A stretch of 64,000 bases of DNA from contig CM039007.1 in NCBI GenBank assembly GCA_017499595.2, positions 62,001 through 126,000 of the forward strand. Reading direction: 5' to 3'. The notes below the pieces were generated by a model. It was not told the origin of the DNA, did no database searches, and worked only from the letters and a program-made list of their open reading frames with translations. A program made the translations under genes and the position numbers. How positions within the stretch are numbered: the first letter of the stretch is position 1; each line of letters begins with the position of its first letter. The DNA is from Psilocybe cubensis. Lineage: Eukaryota. Below are positions 27,536 to 28,029 of the stretch, piece by piece.

Positions 27536-27610
27536 AGCTTCGATATGCTGTTAGGAATCGACTTAAGTCAAGAGAGAAGAATGCCCAAAGACCAAGTTGA
27601 TATCGAAGCT
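27536..27610 (-). promoter_or_regulatory. Self-priming PBS (27536-27546) and its 11-nt complement in the 5' LTR (27600-27610)
   Basis: On the minus strand ATATCGAAGCT begins 2 nt after the 5' LTR. It is the exact complement of AGCTTCGATAT in the LTR, which lies 27 nt downstream of TATATATA (27638-27645). Confidence 0.8.
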
Positions 27611-28029
27611 GGGGTCTGACTACTGACCCCAGGACCCTATATATACATGGAGACCGGAGTAACTACTTCCCGGACCAGAGTACTCGACATATGACAACTA
27701 TCAATAGATGAAACAGGAGAACGATAGACGTGGGACCGAACACAAAGATAGAACAAGGCATGACAGCGTGGGACCGTAACAGATAACGATAACGGATAGG
27801 GGTGGCACCAATACGTACCCTGACAGCCCCTGTGATTAGATCAAAAATTCGAACGCCCACTCGCAAACGGAGCTCAAATATATCAAAGAAACTCTGCAGT
27901 GATAATTCATTATCAAACCCCCGCATCCCACATCTACATGTGTCCGCTTCTATGATCCCTTTATTACCGTTGAGCGCTCACCATTAATACGTGGGAGTAT
28001 CCCGCCTAACACAACATAATATCATGGTT

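Follow-up and report, generated by a model that had tools for sequence, protein, structure and literature searches.

A KH-coding mini LTR element of Psilocybe cubensis with a predicted Tf1-like self-primer

The element and its surroundings

The window (the whole stretch of Psilocybe cubensis contig CM039007.1 analysed here, 64,000 nt) contains a mini LTR element of 1583 nt on the minus strand, at 27825-26243. Its features, in the direction of transcription, are as follows.

27826-27830 (-): left copy of the 5-bp target site duplication (TSD), GGGGC
27549-27825 (-): 5' LTR, 277 nt, TG...CA, identical to the 3' LTR
27638-27645 (-): TATA box TATATATA, its first T lying 35 nt before the primer
27609-27632 (-): hairpin, 8 bp, across the predicted U3/R border
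27600-27610 (-): predicted self-primer AGCTTCGATAT, the first 11 nt of a transcript that would start at 27610
27536-27546 (-): primer binding site (PBS) ATATCGAAGCT, 2 nt (GC) past the LTR end
26561-27457 (-): 298-aa ORF, P0001
26945-27127 (-): type I KH domain of P0001
26520-26533 (-): polypurine tract (PPT)
26243-26519 (-): 3' LTR, 277 nt, with a second copy of the hairpin and primer word
26326-26319 and 26310-26303 (-): hairpin arms in the 3' LTR
26304-26294 (-): copy of the primer word in the 3' LTR
26238-26242 (-): right copy of the TSD, GGGGC

P0001 is the sole recognisable gene of the element. Two other open frames overlap it, one of 215 aa (26395-27042, -) that has no Pfam match and one of 172 aa (26919-27437, +); both are probably shadow frames. 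Rfam gave no match at E 1 within 26100-28000. The host genome holds 32 matches to the mini element, 15 of them full length; among these 15, the TSD is perfect in 13, the primer:PBS pair is perfect in 12, the 298-aa ORF is intact in 11, and the LTRs differ at no more than two positions in 10. CpG transitions account for 77 of the 153 distinct changes among the element copies. One older copy (L012, G000:C7:3338764-3340346) has matching changes in the 5' LTR primer and the PBS, and its 3' LTR keeps the common word; the changes are best read as two CpG transitions after insertion, and this copy was excluded from the covariation count given below.

Elsewhere in the window we note (i) an ORF at 60233-60979 (+) with a TET/JBP dioxygenase domain (Pfam E 8e-19), probably DNA-transposon related, that adjoins a large inverted duplication (36.7-43.5 kb vs 56.0-59.3 kb, 89-98% complementary); (ii) an ORF with an LPMO_10 domain at 29001-29711 (+), with paralogous segments nearby at 30956-31255 and 34345-34644; and (iii) a GC-rich, low-complexity region at 46000-56000 that includes a 1835-codon open frame (48724-54231, -).

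Complementarity of LTR and PBS

Read on the minus strand, ATATCGAAGCT (27546-27536) and AGCTTCGATAT (27610-27600) are complementary at 11/11 positions, with 53 nt between the arms. The first-pass annotation of this DNA had described a perfect 11-nt complement, placed 27 nt downstream of a TATA-like box, in an element without a TGG-type PBS, and all of this holds: the two words pair throughout, the box TATATATA lies at 27645-27638 with the primer running from 27610, and no TGG follows the LTR end. Two details needed adjustment. The PBS, which had been put just inside the 5' LTR, does adjoin the LTR end but lies outside the LTR, 2 nt (GC) past the terminal CA at 27549. The hairpin drawn between box and primer is real, CTGGGGTC (27632-27625) pairing with GACCCCAG (27616-27609) at 8/8 positions, but its 3' arm also takes in the first two primer bases.

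The chance of a perfect 11-nt complement within the LTR, at any of four offsets, is about 3-4 x 10^-4, an empirical figure based on 12 of 123,978 window 11-mers per offset. The self duplex of primer and PBS is worth -15.1 kcal/mol, and the predicted 5' 111 nt fold with z = -3.6, none of 200 shuffles being equally good. For this single copy the fold also predicts an imperfect stem in U5 and another in the leader; Tf1 has additional duplexes within and beyond its loop.

Covariation across relatives

A profile search with the family gave 73 representatives of 50%-identity clusters at E < 1e-30. The named homologues that are 91-99% identical come from Psilocybe cubensis, and others from Agrocybe, another Psilocybe, Dendrothele, Termitomyces and Sphaerobolus; where named, the ORF is carried in databases as an ordinary hypothetical host gene.

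A metagenome scan yielded 53 loci with a KH relative, 46 of which had at least 480 nt upstream of the KH, the other seven being dropped for having less. A blind rule was applied to the 46: CA, then 0-3 nt, then a word of at least 9 nt whose complement sits 20-170 nt upstream. The rule itself requires complementarity; it is matched by 37/46 loci and by 45/920 shuffles. The matches include 34 canonical ones and three non-canonical ones that were put aside (L056, L063 and L070). Of the 12 loci beyond the canonical 34, L055 has 12/12 bases paired across a loop of 177 nt, and in L083 the pairing is 9/10. The other ten comprise seven without a recognisable LTR end and three cut by contig ends; among the 46 loci inspected, none had an LTR end and a PBS-like word together with an unrelated primer.

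The compensatory changes between PBS and LTR that had been proposed as a check are present across the family, in which 18 primer words (as extracted, including that of the window; 17 with the shorter form of L068 merged) each match their own PBS. The KH cores of L069 and L073 are identical, their primer words different. These loci fall into two clades in the tree and are not independent of each other. The PBS is offset from the CA by 2 nt in 31/36 family loci and by 0 nt in 4/36. Some upstream DNA is repeated downstream in 23/35 canonical loci, at a spacing of 1.25-1.61 kb in 22 of them, and the TSD is perfect in one of the four loci for which both outer ends are present. Two loci are peculiar: in L077 the gap between TATA and primer is 10 nt shorter and there is no hairpin, and L105 has 3.5 kb between its LTRs and a KH frame that breaks off.

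Of the 37 blind-rule loci, 32 have a TATA-like word at a distance of 32-36 nt upstream of the primer. Immediately before the first A of the primer stands C in 34 of 36 loci and T in the other two (a pyrimidine in 36/36), primer starts having been trimmed to the first A where pairing extended 1-2 nt upstream. The spacing and the pyrimidine lend indirect support to a transcription start at 27610 or no more than two bases away. Judged by sequence, the mini element is very probably a young LTR retrotransposon that is non-autonomous and has Tf1-type priming.

The KH protein

Pfam KH_1 matches aa 111-171 of P0001 (E 5.7e-9), where the GxxG loop is intact; there is no gag or pol domain among the Pfam matches. 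The AlphaFold2 model has a long N-terminal helix (aa 16-53), the KH fold (109-180), a basic helix and a disordered tail rich in Pro, Ser and Thr. The nearest solved structures, best in both sequence and structure, are hnRNP K KH3 and PCBP. These share with P0001 the type I KH fold and the GxxG loop, at ~30% identity, whereas P0001 has its single KH between a long helix and a disordered tail, and is encoded on a mobile element. In the Protein Atlas the best scores (0.83 and 0.81) are to KH clusters of Basidiomycota, which we take as leads. Three relatives of 759-781 aa (P0118, P0126 and P0130) have a single KH and no other Pfam match, and are possibly a longer form of the family.

dN/dS ratios indicate that the KH core is under purifying selection, with medians of 0.28 over 60 pairs and 0.16 over 44 pairs for the middle two bins of divergence; the two closest pairs stand at 0.85. 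Seven of the 36 sequences were excluded from the dN/dS analysis and the tree for stops or truncation. As the most likely role for the protein we tentatively suggest that it binds the element's own RNA and aids its entry into the particle of the helper. A Gag origin of P0001 was considered and rejected, profile comparison with four Gags of the genome giving a probability of 0.2%. P0001 resembles the Gag of the Gypsy family L136 (below) in its N-terminal helix, in Pro-rich linkers and in a PMEVD word close to the C end (aa 251-255 in P0001); the word by itself is not significant.

A hairpin over the predicted U3/R border

The hairpin was followed through the relatives in a 33-nt segment, 27 nt upstream and 6 nt downstream of the predicted start, whose limits were picked after viewing this copy. 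Its fold is equalled by at most 5 of 100 dinucleotide shuffles in 23 of the 27 distinct sequences. In 25/27 segments, two to six primer bases pair with the upstream arm; at primer position 2 all four bases occur among these 25 (13 G, 8 C, 3 A, 1 T), each time with complementary partners in the U3 arm and the PBS. The conserved hairpin suggests a second, undescribed constraint on the primer bases.

At the 5' end of the RNA the hairpin cannot form, because its 5' arm lies upstream of the predicted start; this would restrict it to the 3' LTR copy, to cDNA and to promoter DNA in the opened state. The 3' LTR is the sole place where the entire hairpin falls within the predicted RNA. When the whole predicted RNA is folded, the 3' hairpin has a probability of 0.92-1.0, and the PBS is occupied by the 5' primer. 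The most likely reading, put forward with some hesitation, is that the hairpin masks the second copy of the primer word and so bars pairing with the PBS or RNA primer on the nascent minus strand. Against masking counts the whole-RNA fold itself, in which the 3' primer copy competes for the PBS at equilibrium with probability 0, be the hairpin open or formed.

Somewhat unlikely, on our assessment, is an alternative that keeps self-priming and gives the hairpin another role: to fix the start site as a DNA fold within the opened promoter, or to be bound by the element's own KH protein. Its placement exactly between TATA and +1 speaks for this, as do the folds computed for each strand under DNA parameters (medians -8.3 and -8.5 kcal/mol over the 27 segments). 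It also accompanies the KH gene, being significant in none of the nine autonomous self-priming families of the genome (best, 19 of 100 shuffles), and the KH is nearest to hnRNP K/PCBP domains solved with C-rich single-stranded DNA, a C run preceding most primers. That run is not universal, however, and the loop sequences vary.

Candidate helpers

Twenty of the 139 RT matches in the genome were taken as family representatives; 13 of these had both LTRs delimited, and seven had no LTR pair within 10 kb. The self-priming signature occurs in 9/13 delimited families, with a PBS offset of 2 nt in eight of the nine; a chromodomain is present in six of the nine and in two of the four families without the signature.

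The family L136 measures 6379 nt, with identical 450-nt LTRs, and encodes gag, RT, RNase H, integrase and a chromodomain; its Pol has no protease in Pfam at E 0.001. It is young, LTR copies being 98-100% identical in the 40 scored. L136 and the mini element are identical in the first 9 LTR bases, and agree at 22/24 nt across the PPT/LTR junction and at 9/11 primer bases. This end match is the best of the 13 delimited families to which the comparison was confined (37/51 nt, vs 33 for the next). LTR ends are partly generic, according to the account in PMC3601003. With one mismatch allowed, a 21-nt PPT/LTR pattern, derived from the mini and L136 families themselves, is found 58 times; 17 of the sites are mini-type and 41 helper-type, and of the latter 38 have the RT spacing of the L136 family. 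On these sequence likenesses the helper is probably a self-priming Ty3/Gypsy element, the L136 chromodomain family being the most likely one, which would be a helper of the chromovirus type inferred in the first-pass annotation.

We regard it as unlikely that the helper is another self-priming Gypsy family of the genome (e.g. L142, L143 or L140), or several of them. For it speak the signature in 9/13 delimited families and a better 3' end: L142 and L143, which like L155 have no chromodomain match, fit the 3' end of the mini element better than L136 does (9/12 vs 6/12); but their total end match and primer match are lower than those of L136, and the 21-nt pattern does not match them.

Other retroelements of the genome deserve mention. 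L148 and L150 are Gypsy elements that have a T-rich stretch at the PBS position and no self-priming signature by the rule; they recall SM-Tcn1, described as T-rich and PBS-less (PMC2864245). In the RT elements L145, L146 and L147, pol is followed by an additional frame of 714-828 codons; their LTRs were not delimited within 10 kb. Copia RTs form tandem arrays at G000:C2:2200959-2253546 (period ~4714 nt) and at C4:2870456-2880155 (period ~4484 nt).

Other explanations of the PBS

In the comparison of the PBS with host tRNAs, 3' ends as well as internal fragments, no 3' end fits, and one bulged duplex with a half-tRNA-Arg(UCG) is a weak rival. No tRNA 3' end matches over more than 1 nt in the set compared, which is incomplete (45 distinct host sequences from 70 genes, 63/1810 candidates having been scored); this rules out priming by a tRNA 3' end from this set. 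The result, together with the compensatory change in relatives, supports the self-priming that the first-pass annotation had proposed.

A tRNA cut in its anticodon loop primes many fungal Copia elements and Helenus TRIMs. That tRNA-Arg(UCG) so cut primes the mini element, whose helper would then be a Copia element, is very improbable. The duplex of its 5' half with the PBS region, which has a 3-nt bulge, is as strong as the self duplex (-16.0 to -16.5 kcal/mol mature and -17.0 unspliced, vs -15.1) and beats 40/40 shuffles; the 8-nt tRNA matches are all located at anticodon loops, which fungal Helenus PBSs are described as matching (PMC10886601), and Copia RTs are abundant in the genome (152 RVT_2 matches). 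Yet the other 17 primer words all fail to beat their shuffles against tRNA (best, 5 of 40), and a single result of this sort is nothing unusual among 18 tests. Matches of 8 nt arise in 141/1000 shuffles, and the last matched base here is an intron base. The 3' end of the half-tRNA would pair 5 nt from the LTR end, as against 2 nt for the self-primer, and the 31 matches of the 11-mer that the genome has outside the element all fall outside tRNAs. Such priming also leaves unexplained an LTR word that changes along with the PBS.

The internal 8-nt match had been ascribed to a tRNA-Ser(CGA), which was discarded as a tRNA-Arg(UCG) with a 12-nt intron misread by ARAGORN; other intron calls in the set may err likewise. 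Four tRNA genes of G000 (L122, L123, L124 and L130) are called tRNA-Ser(CGA) by ARAGORN, and L122 is tRNA-Arg(UCG) after removal of the 12-nt intron.

That the complementarity is due to chance, or is a purely structural 5' UTR stem with no priming role, can be dismissed as extremely improbable in view of the 3-4 x 10^-4 for this copy, the fixed position past the CA of the LTR, the compensatory change in relatives and the identical geometry in autonomous Gypsy elements.

A model for the replication of the element

In Tf1 the first 11 nt of the transcript pair with the PBS; RNase H then cleaves between nt 11 and the rest, and the primer is extended by RT (PMC7175516). Self-priming of the mini element would follow the same course. 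Pol II would start at 27610, give or take one or two bases, and the first 11 nt would fold onto the PBS 53 nt further on, a pairing conserved in the relatives. The RNA would be packaged by a self-priming Ty3/Gypsy helper, most likely of the L136 family, whose RNase H would cut after nt 11 and whose RT would extend the 11-mer, steps suggested by Tf1 and by the shared ends. The plus strand would start from the PPT, and the helper integrase would insert the DNA, giving rise to the 5-bp TSDs that are observed. The hairpin, formed in the 3' LTR copy and in single-stranded cDNA, might mask the second primer word, a role proposed from its structure, and the KH protein, to judge from its fold and the purifying selection on it, may bind the element's RNA and aid packaging.

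A wider proposal, which as a whole we rate as decidedly unlikely, is that these elements are widespread Agaricomycete satellites of self-priming chromoviruses in which the KH protein binds the U3/R hairpin, the two together picking the free primer copy and routing the RNA to the helper particle. The KH protein and hairpin would then form a two-part hijacking device, and the same bases would be held by three-way covariation of U3 arm, primer and PBS.

The 17-18 natural primer/PBS pairs, in a short family without enzymes of its own, amount to a comparative test of what the mechanism needs: they span 10-12 bp, with the PBS ending 12-13 nt after the LTR and loops of 32-177 nt. The family also implies a Tf1-type RT able to process the RNA of another element in trans.

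Relation to known elements

We found no KH-coding LTR element in fungi in the literature outside supplements, Repbase and subscription journals, and a database entry may exist. The passages of two fungal surveys (PMC3248453 and PMC3411680) and of PMC5445492 likewise make no mention of one.

The mini element resembles Tf1/Tf2/Tj1, Tf1/sushi and Tcn1 chromoviruses, as these are described in PMC7175516, PMC4600332, PMC6317226 and PMC2864245, in having, directly behind the 5' LTR, a PBS complementary to a 10-12 nt LTR word downstream of TATA. According to the same four papers it also shares with them the absence of a tRNA PBS, TG...CA ends, a PPT and a 5-bp TSD. Unlike them, it is 1.6 kb long and has one KH gene in place of gag and pol, and its conserved U3/R hairpin has no counterpart in the passages of those papers that describe these elements. 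As regards membership of the chromoviruses, the mini element carries only KH_1 and no RT, RNase H or chromodomain integrase of its own, all of which the candidate helper has.

TRIMs, Helenus included, are likewise short and non-autonomous, with an LTR-PBS-PPT-LTR layout and a 5-bp TSD, and are moved in trans, as outlined in PMC10886601 and PMC13570524. The TRIMs of these accounts are, however, below about 1 kb and non-coding, whereas the mini element has 1583 nt and an ORF under selection. Helenus is described with tRNA-like LTRs and tRNA or half-tRNA PBSs (PMC10886601), unlike the mini element, which has no Rfam matches. Identity with Helenus, Cassandra or Ajax was rejected on the absence of tRNA- or 5S-derived LTR sequence, with 0 Rfam matches at E 1 in 26100-28000.

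TR-GAG elements are non-autonomous LTR elements that keep one ORF, a Gag. They are among the elements named in PMC13570524. The single retained ORF is a likeness, but that of the mini element encodes a KH protein and has no Gag Pfam match; this and the 0.2% profile probability against the four Gags rule out identity with TR-GAG.

The mechanism of self-priming is already known: experiments have demonstrated it for Tf1, and for many relatives it has been proposed on the basis of sequence. What is new is a widespread KH-only satellite that very probably uses it, with a co-varying hairpin over the primer.
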